DNA from: a phage
Assembly (NCBI GenBank): GCA_022520065.1
Contig: GCA_022520065.1_3942.1
Direction: 5' to 3' (one strand)
Length of the DNA stretch: 64,000 nt
The stretch's first letter is position 1. Each line of letters opens with the position of its first letter. A program made the translations under genes and the position numbers. A model generated the notes under the pieces. That model was not told the DNA's origin. It did not search any database and was given only the letters and a program-made list of their open reading frames with translations. Shown piece after piece: positions 51,984 through 63,901 of this stretch.

Positions 51984-52008
51984 AGCCCCTTTAAATAGGG
52001 GCTTTTTT
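51984..52008 (+). terminator. strong intrinsic terminator closing the array
   Basis: AGCCCCT-ttaaat-AGGGGCT followed by TTTTTT; preceded by type-B-like hairpin 51956-51971. Confidence 0.65.
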
Positions 52009-52010
52009 AC

Positions 52011-53590
52011 GTCTATCCAATCCTTATACAATCCCTTTCCCTCACCTTTCCAGAATCTATCCACTGATTCGATAGAACCTATCTCATACCTTAAAAAGCA
52101 ATAACTCTATAGTCTACTCTGTAACCTCTTATCAAATCAACTTAAATAAAAGCCAATAACCCCAGAAAGGGGATGGCCCATTTAAACGCTCTATAAAGCT
52201 CTATAACAGCCTTATCAAACTGACTTAAGGGATTGCATTAACTCACCCTAAAAAGCCCTTTATAAAGCTTCCTAGAGCCTTAAAAGAATCTTATAAGGGT
52301 GTAAGCTTTATCATCTCGTTAGTATTCTTGTGAACTATTAAAAAGGGCTTGGTAGTGTCTTAAAAGTATGTTATAGGGGCTATAAAGTTACTTCAAAGTT
52401 ACGTAAAAGAGGCTATAAAGTTACGTAAATGCTAGCCCCCTTAACATTTTCTTAACAATTTCTTAACAATCCCTACATAGTTATGCTTTTAAGGCACTTG
52501 TTAGCAACTTGTTAGCCCCTTGTTAAATCTCTGTTAAGACCACGTAAAAGCCTTGTAAGAGTCTTTGACATAGCCTTAAAAGCTTCTGTAAAGCTCTATA
52601 AAGAGGTGTCTGTACAGTTGGGGGATAGATACTAGGAAGAGACTTAAAAGAGCTTATAAAGAGCTATAGAGAGCTTTTAAAAGGTATGTTTAAGGAATCA
52701 CTAAGAGGGGAAAGGGAACGATAAGAAAGAGATAGTGACCATGTTAATAGCTTGTTAAAAAGATTAAACACTTGTTAGAAACTTGTTAATTATCTTAACA
52801 AAATAACTCTTAAAAATCAACTTGTTAGCTCTTGTTAGTCATCTGTTAAGGCTCTGTAAAGCCTATGTATCAACTGTTAAGAAACTGTTACACCATTGTT
52901 AGTTCTGTTAAGAAACTGTTAAGACCTTTGAAGAGTTGTTAAGAGCTTGAGAGAGTTGTTAAGAAATTGTTAAGGATATTTTAAAATTTTGCAAAGTACT
53001 TGTAAGGGAGCTGTTAAGGGCTACCAAGCAGATATACATCTTCTACAGATATTTTTGAGTTCCTTCAAAGACCCTAAAAAATGACTTGACAGTCCTATTT
53101 TATAAAAATTTTAAGATTCTGAATAATTACCTATACAGTCTTTTAAAAATACAGGTAGAAACAGGCTTATAAGATACCTTGTTAGTACCGTGTTAGACCT
53201 TGTGAGATAAGGTCTGTAAAGATATTCCTGTTAAGTTTGTTAAAACAGTCTATATAGAGGCTTAGTAGTACCTAGTGAACACCTATAGAGAGTGTCATAG
53301 CTAACCTAGAGATTAAGAGGTGTATAGGAGCTTCTAAGAGGGTATAGAGAGATGGTTAAGATGATTGTATAGGTTGTTTAGAAGGCTTGTTAGAAGAGTG
53401 TTTAGATGGCTATTTAGAAGGGCTATACAGAGGGCTATTAAGACCACTAGATAGTTACTAAGATACTATATAGTACTATATAACTATATATAGAGAGTAA
53501 GATTAAGAAGGTTGTTAAGAAGGGTAGATATTTTGTTCACATATAATGGTGACCCAGAGGTTGGGACAACCGATAAAATTTTATAAAAAT
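52011..53590. repeat. ORF-free island saturated with short degenerate direct repeats (YTGTTARR and related words)
   Basis: No ORF of 60 aa or more on either strand; dense block 52740-52990; tandem 11-mer 52449-52470; TATATA block 53461-53500. Confidence 0.7.
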
Positions 53591-53591
53591 T

Positions 53592-53615
53592 AAAAAGCCC
53601 CCAATTAAGGAGGCT
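53592..53615 (-). terminator. intrinsic terminator for leftward operon
   Basis: On - strand AGCCTCC-ttaatt-GGGGGCT followed by TTTTT; same hairpin design as 17118. Confidence 0.55.
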
Positions 53616-53627
53616 CTTAAGATATTT

Positions 53628-54176
53628 TTAAATCAGTGTTTCCAGAACTGTTTTTAGTGATGACTTGGTTGTCTGATAAAAATGAGTAAAGCCGTTGTTG
53701 TTATCAAATACCTGCATCATGATATCATCTCCCTTGATTGGGTACACTCGGATATCATAGTGAAAACCATTAAAGACACAAGAGCCATTACAGAATGCAC
53801 TAAAGTCATCCACTGAGATATACTCTTCATGTCCTGTGATTTTTATACAGATACCTTTACTCGGTCTCTTAGGATTAATATCTTCCATCACAGACATATT
53901 CTGTCCACCAAGAGATACCATAGTGACCACTTTACGGTTCTTCTGTCTAAAGTACATCTTAACTTTCTGTAAAGTGTCTTCATAGAACGGATAAGACTTC
54001 TCTACAAAGATTCCTTCAAGTGGCTCTTTACCATTTTCAACTTCTCTGTTATGCCGTACTGCAAAGATAATTTGTTCGAACCAGTCAAGATTTTCTTCGG
54101 AGAGTGCTTCCCGAACATCACTCCAATCAAGGACTAGGTAGTTACCTTCAACTTCTTTTAAGTTATCTTTTTCCAT
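53628..54176 (-). CDS. hypothetical protein
   Basis: Track start 54221 is TTG; first ATG at 54176. Confidence 0.45.
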   Translation of the reverse strand: MEKDNLKEVEGNYLVLDWSDVREALSEENLDWFEQIIFAVRHNREVENGKEPLEGIFVEKSYPFYEDTLQKVKMYFRQKNRKVVTMVSLGGQNMSVMEDINPKRPSKGICIKITGHEEYISVDDFSAFCNGSCVFNGFHYDIRVYPIKGDDIMMQVFDNNNGFTHFYQTTKSSLKTVLETLI

Positions 54177-54189
54177 ATCTATCACACCG

Positions 54190-54654
54190 TTATCGTAAAA
54201 CTTGGTAAGCTGGTACTGCAAACTTGTTGCTATTGTTCCTAATAAGGTCTTCTTCTGTTACTAAGAATGTAATCCCACATAAGTGCGTATAGTGGCTGTC
54301 ATACTCGAATATTTTAAGTAAGTATTTACCATCATGATAAACAGATTCTACTACACCTTTTGCAACAATCTTTCCAGTCTTGAAGTCTTTAAGATGGTAT
54401 GTATTACCAACTTTAGGGACTGTTTTCACTTCAGGTTCTTTTAGCTTCTCACTAGCTTCTACATCACCTAGTAAGTTAGAACTTTCAAAAGCTACATGTT
54501 TCATATATGCTTCTGAACATTCCCAGATAAAACAATGTACAAGAACCTTAGCAGCATGTCTTGAGCAATTCAACTCATCACAGATTTCTTTGTACATTTC
54601 ATCTTTAGTTGAATTGGTAAGCATTGCTTTTCGAACTGTTTCTTTAATTTTCAT
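54190..54654 (-). CDS. hypothetical protein
   Basis: 154-aa ORF, ATG start. Confidence 0.5.
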   Translation of the reverse strand: MKIKETVRKAMLTNSTKDEMYKEICDELNCSRHAAKVLVHCFIWECSEAYMKHVAFESSNLLGDVEASEKLKEPEVKTVPKVGNTYHLKDFKTGKIVAKGVVESVYHDGKYLLKIFEYDSHYTHLCGITFLVTEEDLIRNNSNKFAVPAYQVLR

Positions 54655-55072
54655 AAGCTCTCCGAATAACCCTATTAAGCATCTCTAAAGTCAGCTTTCC
54701 AGACTCTAAATGTGGCATAACAAGCTTTAAAGCTTTTTCAACATCATGCACAACATCTATTATACCCTCTTCATAGGCTTCTACAAGGATATCTTTTACG
54801 TTTTGTTGGTTATCTTTTTGTGGTATTGCTAGACGCATATCAAACTCATTTGCTTGAGGGTGGTCACTACCACGCCAGTAACCATCTTTGTTAAAGCTGA
54901 TGTAGTCACCGTGGTAAAAGTGTACACCATTAGCTTTAAACTTCTCCAGCACAAGGCATTGAATTGGGTATTCAGTATTCCACTCCCTGACTCCTATAAC
55001 CTTCACTGTTGCGATGTACTCCTGTGTTTTTACATCTATGATGTCAAGTTCTTGACCAGCTATGATTTGCAT
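54644..55072 (-). CDS. hypothetical protein
   Basis: 142-aa ORF, ATG start. Confidence 0.5.
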   Translation of the reverse strand: MQIIAGQELDIIDVKTQEYIATVKVIGVREWNTEYPIQCLVLEKFKANGVHFYHGDYISFNKDGYWRGSDHPQANEFDMRLAIPQKDNQQNVKDILVEAYEEGIIDVVHDVEKALKLVMPHLESGKLTLEMLNRVIRRAYEN

Positions 55073-55126
55073 ATTCGCTACCTTCTAAGTTTCTACAAAG
55101 GGGCTATCAAGTAACCCCTCAAGTTA

Positions 55127-55351
55127 CTACTCAGGCTTTTCAGTCTTCTTATCGGATTTCTTACTAGTCTTCTTCTCAGCTTTCTGTTCAGGTTCCTTCT
55201 CAGAAGTTGTCTTAATAGCAATATCAAGAAGTTCTGCTAAGTCACTCTTCAGTAGTGTTACAGGCTGCTCATTGTAGAAGTTTTTGTCAAGGTAAACTTT
55301 GAACTCTTCTAAAGAAGGAAATCCAAAAATTGGTACAGGTGTCTTAATCAT
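55127..55351 (-). CDS. hypothetical protein with Lys/Glu-rich tail
   Basis: 74-aa ORF. Confidence 0.4.
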   Translation of the reverse strand: MIKTPVPIFGFPSLEEFKVYLDKNFYNEQPVTLLKSDLAELLDIAIKTTSEKEPEQKAEKKTSKKSDKKTEKPE

Positions 55352-55427
55352 TGCTTAGTCTCTCCATAGGCATCTTTTAAGATTGCCTTGTTAATCATTT
55401 CAGCGATTGCAAAACGAACACATACAG

Positions 55428-55931
55428 CTATAATTGTAGGTTGCATTCTTTACTTACCTCTTCAAGTTTAACCTCAGAATCCTTAAGTCGTTTCTTATGA
55501 ACTCTGAACCTTATTAGTGAGATGATGATACCAGCTAAAGGAACAGCATACAAGTACCAAACATCATATACCTTTGCAGTAATCTGTGTAATTGTCAAAT
55601 CTTGAGCTATGCAGCTAATTGCTGATACTGCCAGTAACATTGCTAAGAAGAACGCCAGCACCATGACAACACTTAGGCAGCCTCTGGCATGGTATTCATG
55701 CTTAATGCACTTATTCTTTTCGTCAACAACCCTGTTGTAGTCGTTTGTAAAGTCTCTGTAGAAAGCTTTCAAGTATTCTTGAGTGTAGCCCTCAAAGCAA
55801 CCTGTACCATACCAATAATCACCACCAAAATGTGCTATGATACCGGTATCTCCATTTGGTTTGGTTACTCTTAGAGAGACGTGATGACCAGTCTTCTGGT
55901 AATCTATCTTATATCTTTCTTCGTAAATCAT
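55428..55931 (-). CDS. membrane protein (two C-terminal TM segments)
   Basis: Start moved to ATG 55929-55931 (ATGA overlap with upstream stop). Confidence 0.45.
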   Translation of the reverse strand: MIYEERYKIDYQKTGHHVSLRVTKPNGDTGIIAHFGGDYWYGTGCFEGYTQEYLKAFYRDFTNDYNRVVDEKNKCIKHEYHARGCLSVVMVLAFFLAMLLAVSAISCIAQDLTITQITAKVYDVWYLYAVPLAGIIISLIRFRVHKKRLKDSEVKLEEVSKECNLQL

Positions 55932-56146
55932 TTTCCAACCCCTCTCAATCTCTTGTTCCATTCAAGGTCAACAAATCTTTGCAGAACTTTTCCTCTAGGA
56001 GTTACACCTTTTAAATCTGCATCGTAACAATGGTAAAAGTCACCTTCAGCGTGTTTACCATAGCATTTTCTGATATTCTGGCTTCTGCGATACTGTTCTA
56101 ACAAGGACAGTTTGTAGTAATCTTCAACTGTAGTTAGTTTTTTCAT
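55928..56146 (-). CDS. hypothetical protein
   Basis: 72-aa ORF. Confidence 0.4.
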   Translation of the reverse strand: MKKLTTVEDYYKLSLLEQYRRSQNIRKCYGKHAEGDFYHCYDADLKGVTPRGKVLQRFVDLEWNKRLRGVGK

Positions 56147-56688
56147 TCTTTCACCATAGCATTTCTGAACTGGCGTTGTGTTTCTCTTGTAATTTCGTTT
56201 GGGGTAAACCCTGCTTTTAGCATATCTCTGAAAAGAACTTCTAAGTGGTCCCTCTCAATGATGTAAATGGCATTCTGAATAGCTGTTTTACGCTCCTTCA
56301 GGTCGCTGCTAATCTCTTCGCACTTGCTTGTAAGTTCTGTGTTAACTTTCTTATAGACTGGCATAACATGTGCATAACAACCTTTATTGGTCTCCATGAA
56401 GAATTTAAAAGATTCCTCAGAGTCCTTTAAAGCAATCCCTATAAAGTTTTTGTAAGCACCTGTGAAAGATAAGGACTCAATCTCAGCAGTCGAGTATACA
56501 GTTCCAGCAAACAGTCTTGCAGAAGTACTAAATGTGTGGTTTGGTGTTGTGTCAAAGTCTAAGTTCTTCAGTGGTCGAAAATAAACTGTTCCATTGTGTG
56601 AGATGTGTGTTACAACAGCCTCAACACTCTTTGAAGGATTCTGTTTAACATACAAAATAATTTTATCGTGTTCTTTCACTTTAGCCAT
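56143..56688 (-). CDS. hypothetical protein
   Basis: 181-aa ORF. Confidence 0.5.
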   Translation of the reverse strand: MAKVKEHDKIILYVKQNPSKSVEAVVTHISHNGTVYFRPLKNLDFDTTPNHTFSTSARLFAGTVYSTAEIESLSFTGAYKNFIGIALKDSEESFKFFMETNKGCYAHVMPVYKKVNTELTSKCEEISSDLKERKTAIQNAIYIIERDHLEVLFRDMLKAGFTPNEITRETQRQFRNAMVKE

Positions 56689-56760
56689 ATCTATTCTCCA
56701 GAAACTAAAAAGGGAACTACCTCTCGATAGCTCCCATCATAATCAATATTGTATACTCGG

Positions 56761-57342
56761 TCAAGAGTATTTTTTAGGCAGCAATGCACTGCGCTTGTTA
56801 CTCTCTTCACTCAATAGTGCAATGAAATCATCACTTTTACCTTTCCACGGGCTGAATGAAGGGATATGTTCGCGGATAGCCTCAATCACTGTTTTAAGTG
56901 CTGTGTTCTTCATCCACCAATCAGAATCTGCTGATGCTACCACGTAGTATCCACCGTCATCAGTTAAAATTGGCTCTGAAATACATGGTGAAATCAAAGT
57001 GGTGATGATTGAACCGTTGTTCATGTAGTATGTGCGCTTCATAACCTTTTCAAGAAGCTTGTGAAGGTCACCAAACAGTGTTACAAGTTCTTTGTGGTCA
57101 ATGTCTTTTTCGAGGTTTGCTCGATACTTCAATAGTGCAGCATCAACCTCTCTATCATTGAACTTGAAGTATTGAACTTCTTCAACAAGGCAAACACTGA
57201 TGTTGTTAACATTCATAGTCAACTTACAAACTTTTACAGGAGAGTTGATGTTTGGTTGAAAAAGTGCAATACACCCTTCAATATTTCCAAAATGTTGTAC
57301 CAATGTTACTTGTGGAGTGATATTCTGTTGCTCTTCGGACAT
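56761..57342 (-). CDS. hypothetical protein
   Basis: 193-aa ORF. Confidence 0.5.
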   Translation of the reverse strand: MSEEQQNITPQVTLVQHFGNIEGCIALFQPNINSPVKVCKLTMNVNNISVCLVEEVQYFKFNDREVDAALLKYRANLEKDIDHKELVTLFGDLHKLLEKVMKRTYYMNNGSIITTLISPCISEPILTDDGGYYVVASADSDWWMKNTALKTVIEAIREHIPSFSPWKGKSDDFIALLSEESNKRSALLPKKYS

Positions 57343-57686
57343 TACAGTTTCCTCATTAAATACTTTTTAAGTTGTGTGTTAGGTTTCTCAAAAACTTCTA
57401 TAGAAGATATCTTGACAGATTCACCTCGCATACCAGTATGTTTGAATATGTAATACTCTAACATCCCTATGTACTTTGCTGGTAAGTCATGCTTGACATA
57501 TACCGTTACAGAATCTTCAAATTCGACAACCTTCGTACCATCTTTGTAGTTAAACTCTTTAGGATGGTTGTAGTTATCTATGTCGTACATTAAAAAGAGT
57601 CTTTTACGTTGTAAGTCAAGCTTATTTGTTAAAGACTCTTTGATATCTGAGAAGTTTTTGTACACTGTGACATGGAGCTTACTCAT
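57342..57686 (-). CDS. hypothetical protein
   Basis: 114-aa ORF. Confidence 0.5.
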   Translation of the reverse strand: MSKLHVTVYKNFSDIKESLTNKLDLQRKRLFLMYDIDNYNHPKEFNYKDGTKVVEFEDSVTVYVKHDLPAKYIGMLEYYIFKHTGMRGESVKISSIEVFEKPNTQLKKYLMRKL

Positions 57687-57972
57687 CGTTAAACTCTCTG
57701 ACGAAGAAATAGTTGACTTTGTTATTACCTACCATAAGGTCAAAGCAGGTATTTTCAAAAGGCTTGTTGTAGGCATCATATGAAACATATGGGTCAGCTA
57801 CTTGCTTAGTGCTTAACTTCTTACTTGATGGGTTTAAGAGGCCACCATACAGCTTCTTGATAGCCTCTTCTACAACAGACCAGATAATTTCGTCAGTAAT
57901 TTCTTCGTACAGGTCAAGTTCACGCTCTAGTGAGAAGTCACAAATAGGGAAAACAACCTGTACTTTACTCAT
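57679..57972 (-). CDS. hypothetical protein
   Basis: 97-aa ORF. Confidence 0.45.
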   Translation of the reverse strand: MSKVQVVFPICDFSLERELDLYEEITDEIIWSVVEEAIKKLYGGLLNPSSKKLSTKQVADPYVSYDAYNKPFENTCFDLMVGNNKVNYFFVREFNDE

Positions 57973-58367
57973 TAACGAATAACCTGTGAGACTTGAATTG
58001 CTTCAGTTACTGACAAATCACCCACTTTTTCTTCTTTGATAAAAGTGAATGTGAGTTCAACAGGCTCTTGCTCTTCTTGCTCAACTGGAATGCCATTAAG
58101 CTCATCAAAGATTGACTGAGTTGTCCAGTCTTCTCCACCATCTGGGTAGTGGATTGCGTAGAGAGGGAACTCTAAATTATACCAAGCAAAAACAGGACAA
58201 CCATCGGCATCATCTCGGCATCTGTGGAGATATGTGTTTGTACCTTCAAAATGCAAATGAAGATTGCCATTCTTCTCAAAGAGAAGAGCATCTTGCAGGT
58301 CTAGTTCCTCATTTTCGCTGTAACGACTGACATCAACTTTAACGTGGATATGACTGTTATTATTCAT
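57972..58367 (-). CDS. hypothetical acidic protein
   Basis: 131-aa ORF. Confidence 0.5.
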   Translation of the reverse strand: MNNNSHIHVKVDVSRYSENEELDLQDALLFEKNGNLHLHFEGTNTYLHRCRDDADGCPVFAWYNLEFPLYAIHYPDGGEDWTTQSIFDELNGIPVEQEEQEPVELTFTFIKEEKVGDLSVTEAIQVSQVIR

Positions 58368-58758
58368 AAAAACCTCTCTCTGCTTGTTCGATTTTTGCTC
58401 TTAAAGCTTCGCAATGTTGTAAATGATAGTTAGCCTCTTGTTCATGTGTTGCTAACTGCCTTTCCAGAACAGTTTTATAATAACTTGCGAGTTGCTCTTT
58501 TGTCAATGGGTGCTCTGAAATAATATCAAGTCCACTTTCGCCAAGAGGGTTGAATTGTCCATGTTCGTTGACATTGTAAGTCTCAAACTTGAACAGACCA
58601 TTGTTCACAGACTCAATAGGTGACAGTTCAACAAGCTCTACAGTAAACCGTGTATATACCTTGTCACCTCTTGAAACCACATTGTTCCCGACAATGCGTA
58701 CAAGCGAGCCATTACGAGTGTACTTAAAAGTTCCAAAGTCACTAGCCCAAAGTTTCAT
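58360..58758 (-). CDS. hypothetical protein
   Basis: 132-aa ORF. Confidence 0.5.
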   Translation of the reverse strand: MKLWASDFGTFKYTRNGSLVRIVGNNVVSRGDKVYTRFTVELVELSPIESVNNGLFKFETYNVNEHGQFNPLGESGLDIISEHPLTKEQLASYYKTVLERQLATHEQEANYHLQHCEALRAKIEQAERGFYE

Positions 58759-58775
58759 AGTTTTCTCCTTAGAAA

Positions 58776-58799
58776 ATAAAAAAGGCTCCCGAAGGAGCC
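58776..58799 (-). terminator. intrinsic terminator after endolysin gene
   Basis: On - strand GGCTCC-ttcg-GGAGCC followed by TTTTTT. Confidence 0.6.
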
Positions 58800-58809
58800 T
58801 ATGAAGATA

Positions 58810-59274
58810 TTACTTTGGGTATACACTGTCAAGATAAATGTCAGCTTCCATTCTACGTCTGTTTTTCAGTCCGTTTGAAGTGACCTTCTTACCTTTGACT
58901 GTAACCTTGTTCCACCACTGCATAGCTTCTGCACAACCTACCTTATTACCAGCATTGTGGCGCTTGATAAATGTGGAATCCTGCATAGCCGTGATACCAA
59001 TGTTGTATGTTTCACTTACAAGTGCGTCAAACTCATTCTGAGAAGTTGGAACCTTGATGGCTTTGTTCACTGCTGCAACGAACCTTTCAACATCTGCGAG
59101 AAGATACTGTTCAGCTTGTTCAGCGGTAATCTTCATACCCATCTTAACAGGTTTACCAGCAATACTGATAGTCCCATACCCAATTGTGGGGATTCCAGCA
59201 GAATCTTCGTAAGCCTCCAGCTTCAGACCTTCAAAGAACTTAATAGCCTCTAAACCTTTTCTTGAGAGTTGCAT
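58810..59274 (-). CDS. endolysin, GH24 phage lysozyme
   Basis: N-terminal FEGLKLEAYEDSAGIPTIGYG lysozyme signature. Confidence 0.8.
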   Translation of the reverse strand: MQLSRKGLEAIKFFEGLKLEAYEDSAGIPTIGYGTISIAGKPVKMGMKITAEQAEQYLLADVERFVAAVNKAIKVPTSQNEFDALVSETYNIGITAMQDSTFIKRHNAGNKVGCAEAMQWWNKVTVKGKKVTSNGLKNRRRMEADIYLDSVYPK

Positions 59275-60407
59275 TATGCCTCCCCTGCTGGGTTAACTGT
59301 AACTGTTGCCGCATTAGATGTTACAGAGCCACCTGCGCCAGTAACTACACAGGTGTAGCTTCCTGAATCAGCAGTGGTTGCACCTTCTTTGGTGTAAGTT
59401 GCAGTAGTTGCGTCTGGGATGTTTTCCTCACCCTTCTTCCACTGATATCCTGTTGCACCTGTTGCCACAACATTCAGCGTTAAGGTCTCACCTTCAGTGA
59501 TTTCTTGATTGGTTGGCTGTTGAGTGATTACAGGAAGTGCATTCACAGTTACTACAGCAGCATTAGATTCCACTGCACCACCAGCACCTGTTACAACGCA
59601 AGTGTATGAACCTGCATCTGCTGGCAGAGCACCAGACTTGCTATAGGTGGCATCTGTAGCCGAAGGAATGTCAGAGCCATCTTTCTTCCACTGATAACCT
59701 GTTGCACCTGTTGCAGTCACTTCCAAGTTGATATTTCCACCCTCATTGATGGTCTGGCTAGAAGGTTGTTGTGTAATCACAGGCAGTGCGTTAACAGTAA
59801 CTGTTGCCGCATCTGAGGTAACGCTTGTTCCAGCCTCTCCAGATACAACACAAGTGTATGAACCAGCATCAGAAGGTACTACAGACTGTTTTGTGTAGGT
59901 TGCAGATGTGGCGCTAGTGATATCCTCACCATCTTTTTTCCATTGATATCCAGTGGCATTAGTTGCAATAACGCTTAGGTTAAGTGTACCACCTTCATTT
60001 ACTGTTTGATTGGTTGGTTGCTGAGTGATTGATGGTGGCTTGATAGCGTCCTTCAACTTAGCATTCAACATTGAGAATGGTTTAACTCTTGCCAGCCATT
60101 CACAATAAACTGTATCAACGTCTTTACCATTGATAATTGCATATTGTAAGTCCATGAAGAAGTCAGAAGTTCTCATTTGAGCACCAACGCTGTAAAGCAA
60201 CTCATCACTAAATGGAACTTTGTAGTCTGGTTTGTAGTCAAACTTCTCAACTTCTGCAATATCAGCTTCAGGCCAATACGAACTATAGGTGAGTGGTAAA
60301 ATAGCCTCTTGATATGTTCTAAAGTCATATCTCTTACCAGCCTTTACATTTGCAATGAAGCCCTTCACAAACTCTTTGAAGTCTGGGTAAGTCTTTGCTT
60401 TAATCAT
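59274..60407 (-). CDS. protein with three tandem Ig-like domains
   Basis: Three ~90-aa repeats (QQPxxQxxNEGxxxxLxVxATGATGYQWKK...GSYTCVV); N-terminal domain paralogous to 60404..60775. Confidence 0.5.
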   Translation of the reverse strand: MIKAKTYPDFKEFVKGFIANVKAGKRYDFRTYQEAILPLTYSSYWPEADIAEVEKFDYKPDYKVPFSDELLYSVGAQMRTSDFFMDLQYAIINGKDVDTVYCEWLARVKPFSMLNAKLKDAIKPPSITQQPTNQTVNEGGTLNLSVIATNATGYQWKKDGEDITSATSATYTKQSVVPSDAGSYTCVVSGEAGTSVTSDAATVTVNALPVITQQPSSQTINEGGNINLEVTATGATGYQWKKDGSDIPSATDATYSKSGALPADAGSYTCVVTGAGGAVESNAAVVTVNALPVITQQPTNQEITEGETLTLNVVATGATGYQWKKGEENIPDATTATYTKEGATTADSGSYTCVVTGAGGSVTSNAATVTVNPAGEA

Positions 60408-60775
60408 TTCTTTTTATCCTCTAAATGTGCGTTTAGTCTAAAATAACCTTTGTGATGCGGAGATACATCACCAACAACGATACCTTTAACCTTATAACCT
60501 TTACCAATTACATACTGGATATCCATAAGGAATCTTCCAAGACCAACAATATGGAACATTGGATATAATAGATTCTCAGAGTCTGGAATATTGATTTCGG
60601 GTTTGTAGGTGCGTTGTTCGATTGTTGGTGTAATATCTTCTTCAGGCCATTTACTAAGTCTCCATGTCAAAGGTGTTGGGATAACATCATTAAGGTTGTA
60701 CCTTTCACCATTTTGCACGGAATTGATATAGGATTGTAGGAAGCAATAAAAGTCTTTTGCACTCTTAGCTTTCAT
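60404..60775 (-). CDS. hypothetical protein (paralog of N-terminal domain of Ig-like protein)
   Basis: Shared N-terminal pattern and FLMDIQYVI block. Confidence 0.45.
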   Translation of the reverse strand: MKAKSAKDFYCFLQSYINSVQNGERYNLNDVIPTPLTWRLSKWPEEDITPTIEQRTYKPEINIPDSENLLYPMFHIVGLGRFLMDIQYVIGKGYKVKGIVVGDVSPHHKGYFRLNAHLEDKKK

Positions 60776-61900: not shown

Positions 61901-62032
61901 AGGTGTAGGCTTATAAATACTTAGAAGATAACTTAAAAGGTTCCTCTAAAAAGGCTATTTAAACAGATATCTTTCTGGATATCTATCTTTTATCTTAAAA
62001 GCCTTTTAAGAGGTCTTATAAGAGGCATACCA

Positions 62033-62404
62033 ATGAAAAACAGAACAAACAAAGGCCAGTTTAAAAAAGGCCAGTCTGGAAACCCATCTGGAAGACCAAA
62101 AGGCTCTCGTAACAAAAGTTCACTCGTAAAAGCTCAACTGACCATTGATAATTCTGCTGAGTTCGCTGCAAAGCTGTTTGAGGCGATTGTTACAAGGGAC
62201 GCGGCTAAGCTTGCAGAGTTCGGGTTAAACACAGATGACGTAACCATCAAGAGTATGATTGAGGTCGGTAAAACTATCTTTACTCACTCAGCAGGTGAGA
62301 TGAAAGCACTTGCAGCAGACACTAAGAAGACTCCTGAGAATGGTGGTCAACAACAGACAGATAACAAACCAACGTTCTCTGCTGTAGCGACTCTTAAAAA
62401 ATAA
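62033..62404 (+). CDS. hypothetical protein with GNPSGRPKG motif
   Basis: 123-aa ORF; basic Gly/Pro N-terminus. Confidence 0.45.
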   Translation: MKNRTNKGQFKKGQSGNPSGRPKGSRNKSSLVKAQLTIDNSAEFAAKLFEAIVTRDAAKLAEFGLNTDDVTIKSMIEVGKTIFTHSAGEMKALAADTKKTPENGGQQQTDNKPTFSAVATLKK

Positions 62405-62485
62405 TTTTAAAAGGTGTTGACAGACTCTACAAAGTTGCTCTAAAGTCTGTCACATCAAACAACAAATGAGAGAAGAGAGTAAAAT

Positions 62486-63901
62486 ATGAGCGAATTATTT
62501 AAACATGCGCACCTTCATGCAGGTCGAACTGAAAATGGTGCTGTAAACCATACTTCATCAATGTCTGCTCTTGTGGACTTTTACAAAGCTGCTGGTTCTA
62601 GCCGTAGCAATGTAGAAATCTTACCAGACTTGTTCTACAAAGCTTTGCATGAGGATGTTGATGTTGCAGTTCGTATTTTACTGCATATGCGAGATGTACG
62701 AGAAGGTATGGGTGAGCGTAAAGCTTTCCGAACTGTTTTACTTCAAGCGATTGAAGATAAAGTTCTAGAGTCTACACAGGTTCTTCGCATTATGGATAAG
62801 ATTGCAGAGCTTGGTCGCTTTGATGATTTCAAAATCTTCGTGGGTACTTGTTTCGAGACAGATGCCTTCAAGCATTTAGAAGCAGCATTACTAGACCCTG
62901 CAACAGCAGGTTTGGCAGCTAAGTGGTTACCACGAGTCAAACCACGTCATAAGCAGTTTGTAAAACGTTTCTGCAAGTTTGCCAACTTGAGTGAGAAAGA
63001 GTACCGCACACTGTTGTCTGCACTATCTGATACAGTTGAGCAAAAAATCTCTGCTAATGAGTTTGGTAAGATTGACTACAGTAAGATTCCTTCACTTGCT
63101 GCTGCACGTTACCAAAAACTGTTTAACCGTAAAGATGGAGAGCGTTACAAAGCTTACATCGAGTCCTTATCAAAAGGTGAGACTAAGATTAACGCTGGTG
63201 CTGTTTACCCATACGATGTGATTAAATCTGTCAAGTATGGTAATGCAGATGTTGCTAATGAGCAGTGGAAAGCACTACCAAACTGGATGGCAGAAGGTGA
63301 AAACATCTTGTGTATGTCTGATGTATCAAGTTCAATGTCTTGGGTGAATTTTGGCTCCATTACTGCTCTGGATATTGGTGTATCACTTGCCTTGTATGTA
63401 GCAGAACGCAATACAGGTTGCTTTAAGAATGAGTTAATGGTTTATTCAACAAACCCTCACTTCATCGAACTGAGTGGTGATTTACGAAACCGTCATCGTC
63501 AGGTGATGCGACACGTTGAATATGGCTCAACTAACTTACAAGCAGCTTTTGACCGTATTCTTGAGACAGGTAAAAGAAACAACTTGACTCAGAAAGATAT
63601 GCCAAGTAAGCTTATCATCTTCTCCGATATGGAGTTCAATCAGGTTGATGGAGCTAACGGTCGTACAAACTTTGAAGCAATTCAGAGTAAGTACAAAAAA
63701 GCTGGATATGAGATGCCACAACTGGTATTCTGGTACTTAGCAAACCGTAATGGCACTTGCGAAGTATCTGTTAAGGATAACGGTGTAGCAATGGTATCTG
63801 GTTTCTCTCCAGCCACTTTAAAAGCTTTGCTTGGTGGTGAGAAGTTTGACCCAATCAGCGTAATGCTCAAAGCAGTAATGATTGACCGTTATATCTGGTA
63901 A
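62486..63901 (+). CDS. vWA-domain protein, possibly TROVE/Ro60-like
   Basis: MIDAS-like DVSSSMS in C-terminal half; helical N-terminal half; family assignment tentative. Confidence 0.4.
   Translation: MSELFKHAHLHAGRTENGAVNHTSSMSALVDFYKAAGSSRSNVEILPDLFYKALHEDVDVAVRILLHMRDVREGMGERKAFRTVLLQAIEDKVLESTQVLRIMDKIAELGRFDDFKIFVGTCFETDAFKHLEAALLDPATAGLAAKWLPRVKPRHKQFVKRFCKFANLSEKEYRTLLSALSDTVEQKISANEFGKIDYSKIPSLAAARYQKLFNRKDGERYKAYIESLSKGETKINAGAVYPYDVIKSVKYGNADVANEQWKALPNWMAEGENILCMSDVSSSMSWVNFGSITALDIGVSLALYVAERNTGCFKNELMVYSTNPHFIELSGDLRNRHRQVMRHVEYGSTNLQAAFDRILETGKRNNLTQKDMPSKLIIFSDMEFNQVDGANGRTNFEAIQSKYKKAGYEMPQLVFWYLANRNGTCEVSVKDNGVAMVSGFSPATLKALLGGEKFDPISVMLKAVMIDRYIW

Follow-up and report, generated by a model that had tools for sequence, protein, structure and literature searches.

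A largely conserved leftward block of small genes without assigned function in a Felix O1-like phage genome

Introduction

The closest described relatives of the locus reported here are found in phages Felix O1 and Bas63. The Felix O1 genome paper treats genes 40-24 as a single leftward 'transcripton'; no phage RNA polymerase or polymerase modifier was found in that genome, and how transcription passes its many terminators was not known to the authors (PMC3185647). Here we analyse the block that corresponds to the genes from ORF34 to ORF24 of this unit, located on the minus strand at positions 53628-58758 of a 64,000-nucleotide stretch of phage DNA (NCBI GenBank assembly GCA_022520065.1, contig GCA_022520065.1_3942.1; hereafter the window). 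The block has been known as an object, its genes being 'hypothetical', since the Felix O1 genome paper of 2010 and is found in about 250 sequenced phages. It makes up about a tenth of the gene count and is without assigned function, in a group of phages that serve Salmonella typing, food biocontrol and therapy and in which Bas63 is an emerging model.

As we read the evidence, the block is likely to be the promoter-distal part of the conserved leftward unit ('genes 40-24') of enterobacterial Ounavirinae, and to consist of thirteen unrelated non-virion genes. Their products would act independently inside the infected cell, on the host itself or on the nucleic-acid metabolism of the phage, and not as a pathway or complex.

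Identity of the locus

Megablast of positions 53400-58900 returned 242 phage records, almost all of them Felix O1-like, and on these matches the window is assigned to a Felixounavirus (Felix O1-like myovirus) genome. At least 80% of the query is covered by 179 of the 242 records, mostly at 90-95% identity, from Escherichia, Salmonella and Shigella phages. Felix O1 ORF24-ORF34 (Felix01p050-p068) and Bas63 gp112-gp122 are the same genes in the same order and on the same strand, with 81-100% amino-acid identity. The flanks are alike as well, with endolysin and Hex-Dec genes on one side and a non-coding repeat region on the other. The window has both optional cassettes (g6 and g10; numbering as in Table 1), Felix O1 is devoid of g10 and Bas63 of g6 and g10, and the allele combinations of g1, g2, g5 and g11 vary between phages.

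The listing of open reading frames (ORFs) bears out several claims of the first-pass annotation of this DNA: the twelve minus-strand ORFs, the ATGA-type overlaps (adjacent ORFs overlap at start and stop by 1, 4, 8 or 11 nt) and the position between the endolysin terminator and the non-coding repeat region, which begins beyond a further terminator closing the block. Twelve is not the total, as a conserved ORF of 32 amino acids (aa) had been overlooked, and with it the block comprises thirteen small genes. The additional ORF overlaps the 3' end of g8 and is linked to g9 through a common ATGA; all 30 loci, those of other genera included, have it, and it is annotated in Bas63, HMD-P10, phiSUSP1 and KMM2. 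Nor do all twelve ORFs have the proper ATG starts ascribed to them: the 197-aa form of g12 begins at TTG, the relatives carrying the ATG form (182 aa) in their annotation. g8 most likely starts at 55931 (167 aa), judging by its ATGA overlap with g7, the annotated start in relatives and the alignment to PHROG 4343, which runs from residue 11.

Median ratios of nonsynonymous to synonymous substitution rates (dN/dS; NG86, Nei-Gojobori), estimated against up to 30 related loci, range from 0.03 to 0.37 over the twelve ORFs, with 0.05 for the endolysin as a control, and each of the twelve aligns along its whole length with one PHROG that has no known function. The low dN/dS and full-length matches mean that the ORFs are genuine genes under purifying selection and not chance frames. 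Ten window proteins were looked up, and identical copies of them are public under the names 'hypothetical protein', 'phage protein' or 'membrane protein'. Identical copies also occur on 86-91 kb contigs filed as Escherichia coli or Shigella assemblies (for example Third Party Annotation records HBZ9459552-HBZ9459561), which points to complete Felixounavirus genomes inside bacterial isolate sequencing data.

Core genes and variable slots

Presence and absence across relatives were followed by tblastn with every gene in 30 loci, which represent Felixounavirus, Suspvirus (phiSUSP1), Mooglevirus (KMM2) and two more distant IMG/VR contigs. Genes g1, g2, g3, g4, g5, g7, g8, g9 and g12 are syntenic in every complete locus. 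Amino-acid identity of the core genes to other genera is 47-75%, and dN/dS of the ten fixed genes is 0.03-0.17.

The other three genes vary. g6 is missing from about half of the Felixounavirus loci, and other genera have a longer form of it with a 60-70 aa insert. About a third of the loci have no g10; allele identity is otherwise 56-98% within Felixounavirus and 26% in one distant locus, and in a few loci the g10 slot holds a different or extra ORF. g11 is lacking in two loci, and one of its alleles is only 45% identical. Both cassettes behave as clean insertions or deletions (indels): the g5-g7 gap measures 614 nt with g6 versus 68-84 nt without it, and the g9-g11 gap 464-472 nt with g10 versus 42-56 nt without it. 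Two allele classes each at g1, g2 and g5 indicate recombinational mosaicism at these genes.

The conserved synteny of ten genes, together with the clean g6 and g10 indels, shows that most of the block is core to the lineage and that three slots in it vary, ten of the thirteen genes being fixed across three genera. An 'accessory reservoir', as the block had been called at first, does not describe this pattern, in which g1-g5, g7-g9, g12 and the 32-aa ORF are syntenic across the genera and only g6, g10 and, rarely, g11 vary.

With g8 as query, tblastn retrieved 253 phage records, all from enterobacterial Ounavirinae, and database searches with g5, g11 and g12 gave matches confined to this lineage (apart from the g12 N-terminal domain). 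No paralogy was detected among the twelve families, whose all-against-all hhalign probabilities are below 3%, and hidden Markov model (HMM) searches with profiles of g1-g6, g8 and g10-g12 (g7 and g9 were unprofiled) found no paralogs elsewhere in the window.

Expression, virion and fitness data

The only timing data for these genes come from Felix O1. Reverse transcription PCR (RT-PCR) maxima were reported at 25 min for ORF24, 25, 26, 28, 29, 32, 33 and 34 and for the endolysin ORF35, at 5 min for ORF31 (g4) as the only such gene of the block, and at 60 min for ORF30 (g5), ORF36 and ORF37; ORF27 (g8) is missing from the list (PMC3185647). The virion proteome of the same phage comprises Gp23, 36, 49, 53-55, 57-59, 63, 64, 67-69, 73, 74 and 77, and none of Gp24-34 (PMC3185647). 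The Felix O1 genes of the block are thus transcribed, mostly peak mid-infection and have products that are absent from virions. The available text of the Bas63 cryo-electron microscopy (cryo-EM) paper makes no mention of the three block products looked for in it, gp116, gp118 and gp122.

These data divide the first-pass interpretation. 'Uncharacterised' and non-structural are both borne out, and what we found is not a conserved core with known structural roles in relatives; 'early' is contradicted by maxima that lie mostly in the middle of infection.

For Bas63, the PhageMaP preprint reports mixed essentiality across the block genes, with gp114 (g9) and gp116 (g8) more essential on E. coli S17-1 and the gp116 knock-out less fit on this strain. 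The preprint's text on the panel of defence systems names the endolysin gp123 among triggers and counters, and no block gene. In the literature we found no Felixounavirus transcriptome and, besides PhageMaP, no functional study of Bas63 gp112-122. A block gene was also considered as the trigger of DRT7 and discarded, the reported trigger being Bas63-035, outside the block.

Predicted promoters and terminators, and proposed sub-operons

The sigma-70-like promoters P1 and P2 (Table 1) each stand next to a hairpin, with three bases between the -10 hexamer and the first hairpin base at P1 and none at P2. The stem of the endolysin terminator is identical in all loci compared, from three genera (one locus has a single loop change), and the P1 -10 hexamer keeps the TAnnnT form in other genera (TAGATT, TATATT). 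The -35 and -10 hexamers of P2 and its hairpin are kept in Suspvirus and Mooglevirus, with a diverged spacer, the g5/g6 terminator stem has compensatory changes in one related locus (L005), and the P2 element persists in loci without g6. The g9/g10 hairpin is kept with or without g10 and marks the g10 insertion slot. An Rfam scan of 51.5-62.5 kb gave no credible match. The motif shared by the promoters, TTGACnGnGTATAC, was tried as a phage-wide element and rejected, as it is present only at the block's two sites.

From this arrangement the block may be divided into three translationally coupled sub-operons, g1-g5, g6-g7-g8-orf32-g9 and g10-g11-g12, of which the first two would open with a promoter/terminator composite, a plain hairpin preceding g10. 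We infer that the composites could insulate the sub-operons from each other: upstream read-through would end at the hairpin, and transcripts from the abutting promoter would start inside the 5' arm and, being without the full arm, escape termination.

Table 1 Genes and predicted transcription signals of the block (positions in the window; pI, isoelectric point)
Feature	Position	Strand	Size (aa)	Felix O1	Bas63	PHROG	Other properties
g1	58360-58758	-	132	ORF34	gp122	phrog_4266	dN/dS 0.07; beta-rich N-terminal part, helical tail; two allele groups, about 98% and about 83% identity
g2	57972-58367	-	131	ORF33	gp121	phrog_4348	pI 4.4, net charge -18
g3	57679-57972	-	97	ORF32	gp120	phrog_4385	acidic, pI 4.5
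g4	57342-57686	-	114	ORF31	gp119	phrog_4040	basic, pI 9.3; dN/dS 0.03
g5	56761-57342	-	193	ORF30	gp118		
g6	56143-56688	-	181	ORF29	absent		variable cassette
g7	55928-56146	-	72	ORF28	gp117	phrog_4459	pI 9.6; dN/dS 0.04
g8	55428-55931	-	167 (177 from 55961)	ORF27	gp116	PHROG 4343	
32-aa ORF	55348-55446	-	32	unannotated	gp115 (bas63_0115)		MQPTIIAVCVRFAIAEMINKAILKDAYGETKQ
g9	55127-55351	-	74	ORF26	gp114	phrog_4457	conserved N-terminal part, then Lys/Glu-rich tail
g10	54644-55072	-	142	absent	absent		dN/dS 0.37, highest
g11	54190-54654	-	154	ORF25	gp113	phrog_4713, plus phrog_9565 on residues 2-53	
g12	53628-54176	-	182 from ATG (197 from TTG at 54221)	ORF24	gp112		
P1, sigma-70-like promoter	58804-58832	-					TTGACA-17-TATCTT; 10/12 consensus matches; overlaps endolysin stop
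Endolysin intrinsic terminator	58783-58800	-					AGGCTCC-TTCG-GGAGCCT + T-run; -12.9 kcal/mol, z -3.6
P2, sigma-70-like promoter	56736-56764	-					TTGACC-17-TATGAT; abuts hairpin 56712-56735
g5/g6 intrinsic terminator	56712-56735	-					10-bp stem + T-run; -16.3 kcal/mol, z -5.1; annotated in XTG1
g9/g10 hairpin	55098-55120	-					GGGG...CCCC, weak T-run; -11.7 kcal/mol; terminator in XTG1 annotation
Block-closing terminator	53593-53618	-					-15.2 kcal/mol; hairpin + T-run present in all genera

g12, a probable two-domain protein

The AlphaFold2 (AF2) model of g12, built from 34 homologs, has a mean predicted local distance difference test score (pLDDT) of 82.5, with values above 90 for residues 80-182. 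This C-terminal part is composed of strands 83-87, 93-98, 108-112 and 117-121 and helix 122-128, followed by strands 133-136, 140-146, 151-158 and 164-170 and helix 171-181. Such a topology (four strands-helix-linker-four strands-helix) is the one by which the type I PC4-like/Whirly fold is defined, a family without apparent sequence conservation that includes p24/PBF-2, StWhy2, MRP1/2, Pur-alpha and the T5 PC4-like protein, and most members of which bind single-stranded DNA or RNA (PMC7549692). The domain is also structurally similar to solved PC4-like/Whirly members, and the modelled fold suggests single-stranded DNA or RNA binding by g12. Sequence searches gave no link to Whirly, PurA, PC4 or MRP: Pfam returned only noise at E up to 1, and the PDB profile search was empty. 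A BFVD fold search matched uncharacterised viral proteins only.

The N-terminal ~75 residues (53950-54176) of g12 form a helical domain widespread in phages, with matches in 286 representative clusters (E <1e-3) in a full HMMER scan of 1.84 billion representative proteins. The matches belong to four PHROGs without known function, 7810, 7432, 5992 and 11427, and have no Pfam model; usually the domain is the N-terminus of proteins of 70-250 aa with varied C-terminal parts. The Whirly-like C-terminal domain, by the same scan, is confined to this lineage. In contrast to known PC4-like/Whirly proteins, the g12 domain is fused to an unrelated, widespread N-terminal helical domain.

Other proteins of the block

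That the block has no recognisable domains, as first noticed, stands: no family was found above Pfam, NCBIfam or PADLOC thresholds (g7 and g9 were scanned against Pfam only), none in PADLOC for the ten proteins submitted to it, even at E up to 0.1, and ortholog-profile searches against PDB sequences returned noise only. Below threshold, the g5 family appears to be a relative of DUF5092 (PF17010): 18 of 19 orthologs match profile positions 50-135, all below the cut-off, with a best E of 3e-5, and the window protein scores 20.6 bits against a gathering cut-off of 27 bits. DUF5092 is itself a family without known function, and no mention of it was found in the papers searched.

In a dozen GenBank records (HMD-P10, finno, adrianh, ESCO45/50, BPS17W1 and others) g2 homologs are labelled D-alanyl-D-alanine carboxypeptidase (VanY/peptidase M15). 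The zinc ligands of VanY/peptidase M15 form a His-Asp-His pattern. We found no Pfam family for g2 at E up to 1 and none in NCBIfam, PHROG 4348 is of unknown function, PDB profile matches are noise (enolase, E 0.11), and the alignment has one invariant histidine (H73), H6 and H8 of the window protein being unconserved. Since neither a profile match nor a conserved metal-ligand pattern was found, the label looks like a propagated mis-annotation. g7 was considered as a zinc finger and rejected, its two histidines being unconserved.

The one ORF to which two transmembrane segments had been attributed is g8, and its two hydrophobic helices were found again, between a highly conserved 83-aa N-terminal domain and a basic C-terminal tail. 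Flanking positive charges suggest an N-in/C-in topology, in which g8, possibly with the 32-aa peptide, would be a membrane-anchored cytoplasmic protein.

g10 and g11 are mirror images in layout. In g10 the N-terminal ~90 aa are divergent and the C-terminal ~50 aa nearly invariant; in g11 the N-terminal ~55 aa are invariant and the C-terminal domain is variable. Each would combine a constant with a diversifying module, as expected for proteins tracking variable partners. The g11 N-terminal part has faint helix-turn-helix (HTH)-like matches (Sigma70_r4_2, E 0.09, in 2 of 11 orthologs; HTH_23, E 0.19-0.24, in 4 of 11), and the g11 profile had no match among PDB sequences.

The probable neighbouring genome end and flanking genes

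Phage vB_EcoM_E9 (PP886229.1) begins and ends with the same 580 bp (100% identity), a direct terminal repeat whose counterpart in the window lies at 52435-53025 (about 90% identity). The records of SeKF_63, I14.1 and MET-P1-301 start or stop at a point mapping close to the left edge of that repeat. By homology to the vB_EcoM_E9 terminal repeat, the physical end of the genome probably lies in the repeat island beyond the block. About 600 bp separate the end of the block from the terminal repeat, and the block is transcribed towards this genome end. Non-coding DNA at 52000-53600 is filled with the short repeat families CTTGTTAg, TGTTAAGAAaCTGTTA, CTCTATAAAG and CTTAAAAG; the same repeats recur at 61990-62440, a divergent promoter region, and, inverted, in the g9-g10 hairpin region.

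On the other flank lies the endolysin gene (58810-59274; Pfam Phage_lysozyme, E 9e-41). Bas63 gp123, 97% identical to this endolysin, is described in the PhageMaP preprint as a trigger of the Ec67 retron defence system, its expression being toxic only with the retron. Beyond it, 59274-60407 encodes a 377-aa protein with three immunoglobulin (Ig) domains, the counterpart of Hex-Dec, a Hoc-like protein that decorates the hexamers and has been resolved on the capsid of Bas63 (Bas63 cryo-EM). Four Ig domains have been reported for Bas63 and one to three are found in other relatives. The next ORF, 60404-60775 on the minus strand (123 aa), matches the N-terminal 120 residues of PHROG 3995, the PHROG of Hex-Dec, and its product appears to be a paralogous capsid-binding domain that has no Ig repeats. 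A 471-aa ORF at 62486-63901 on the plus strand takes the position of Bas63 gp130, a Ro60-like protein reported to counter the ppl defence; its Felix O1 counterpart is annotated as an RNA-binding protein. No tRNA gene was found in the window. Relatives have a tRNA array just past the position of the 62486-63901 ORF, and the window probably ends before it.

Discussion

How far the whole block could, like the neighbouring cassette array, be a flexible reservoir in which early accessory genes, for example for anti-defence or host takeover, are all dispensable has to be weighed first. We consider this unlikely. The g6, g10 and g11 cassettes or mosaic alleles, and the g10 dN/dS of 0.37, are in keeping with a reservoir, but ten of the thirteen are invariably present, in conserved order, in three genera at dN/dS of 0.03-0.17. 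Host RNA polymerase would be able to use the consensus-like sigma-70 promoters as soon as infection begins, yet the Felix O1 RT-PCR maxima are mostly middle, not early. g2 and g3 share their strongly acidic character with many DNA-mimic inhibitors, and Bas63 gp114 and gp116 are conditionally important; neither PADLOC nor known anti-defence families were matched, however, and the Bas63 defence-panel text, as far as accessible, names no block gene as counter or trigger. The block also adjoins the genome end, where some other phages keep takeover genes. A mixture of core and conditional functions fits better than a purely dispensable reservoir, and the first-pass interpretation is in this sense partly supported, being half right: uncharacterised and non-structural genes, though not an early accessory reservoir.

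A helper module for late lysis or morphogenesis, with g8 as holin or antiholin and the 32-aa ORF as its membrane partner, or with assembly chaperones, is very improbable. The block lies on the same strand as Hex-Dec and the endolysin and directly downstream of them, but between the endolysin and g1 there is a strong terminator that every locus compared has kept. In favour of g8 as a candidate class II holin are its two transmembrane helices and putative N-in/C-in topology; at 167 aa, with an 83-aa conserved N-terminal domain, it has a size and layout atypical for that class, and its PHROG and those of its neighbours are categorised as 'unknown', not 'lysis'. Although no holin-lysin cassette was found in Felix O1 (PMC3185647), the spanin genes of Bas63 lie elsewhere (bas63_0089, 0090) and the PhageMaP authors put 'lysis proteins such as holins' in another Bas63 segment. 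g5 peaks late, but most block genes peak before the late gene Hex-Dec.

The idea that AT-rich DNA has yielded some or all of these ORFs by chance, for which only their small size and missing domain matches could be cited, is already refuted by dN/dS well below 1 for all twelve, full-length PHROG matches, synteny across genera at the amino-acid identities given above and Felix O1 RT-PCR transcripts.

Against the reading of the block as the promoter-distal part of a conserved leftward unit of independently acting non-virion genes, several points have to be counted. The RT-PCR timing is coarse, and the early g4 and late g5 within one sub-operon are at odds with simple operons. The P1 -35 hexamer lies inside the endolysin coding sequence, so that its conservation is possibly due to coding. 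The model of g5 is of moderate quality (pLDDT 68) and has no convincing fold match. For g12, the Whirly-like domain is near neutral (pI 6.3), and among the best structural matches is an SsgA-like protein, named as a cell-division protein; to our knowledge, the SsgA family does not bind nucleic acids.

More specific roles are speculative, and we hold them to be rather doubtful. g12, perhaps with the faintly HTH-like g11, might bind single-stranded or structured nucleic acid of the terminal repeat and repeat region and so act in replication initiation, end processing or packaging of the linear genome; separately, the diversifying g10/g11 pair and the very acidic g2 and g3 might be inhibitors of host defence or host enzymes. 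If true, either role would be the first function for genes common to about 250 sequenced Ounavirinae.

The current understanding of phage biology is unchanged by these results, and what the analysis adds are leads only: the g12 fold, the link of g5 to DUF5092, the promoter/terminator composites, the thirteenth ORF, the position beside the terminal repeat and the rejection of the g2 peptidase label. Experiments are narrowed by a block that is mostly lineage-core and neither structural nor early, with g6, g10 and g11 as its truly variable slots, with one gene of a nucleic-acid-binding type of fold and with a genome end beside it.

Small non-essential gene clusters near the genome ends of large virulent phages include the T5 pre-early genes, the SPO1 host-takeover module and the small early/middle ORFs of T4. 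The Felix O1-like block resembles these modules in its short, coupled, non-virion genes of unknown function, in its position near a terminal repeat and in that some of the genes are dispensable or conditional. No homology to them was found and, unlike them, the Felix O1-like block has its transcription directed towards the genome end, with maxima mostly in mid-infection.

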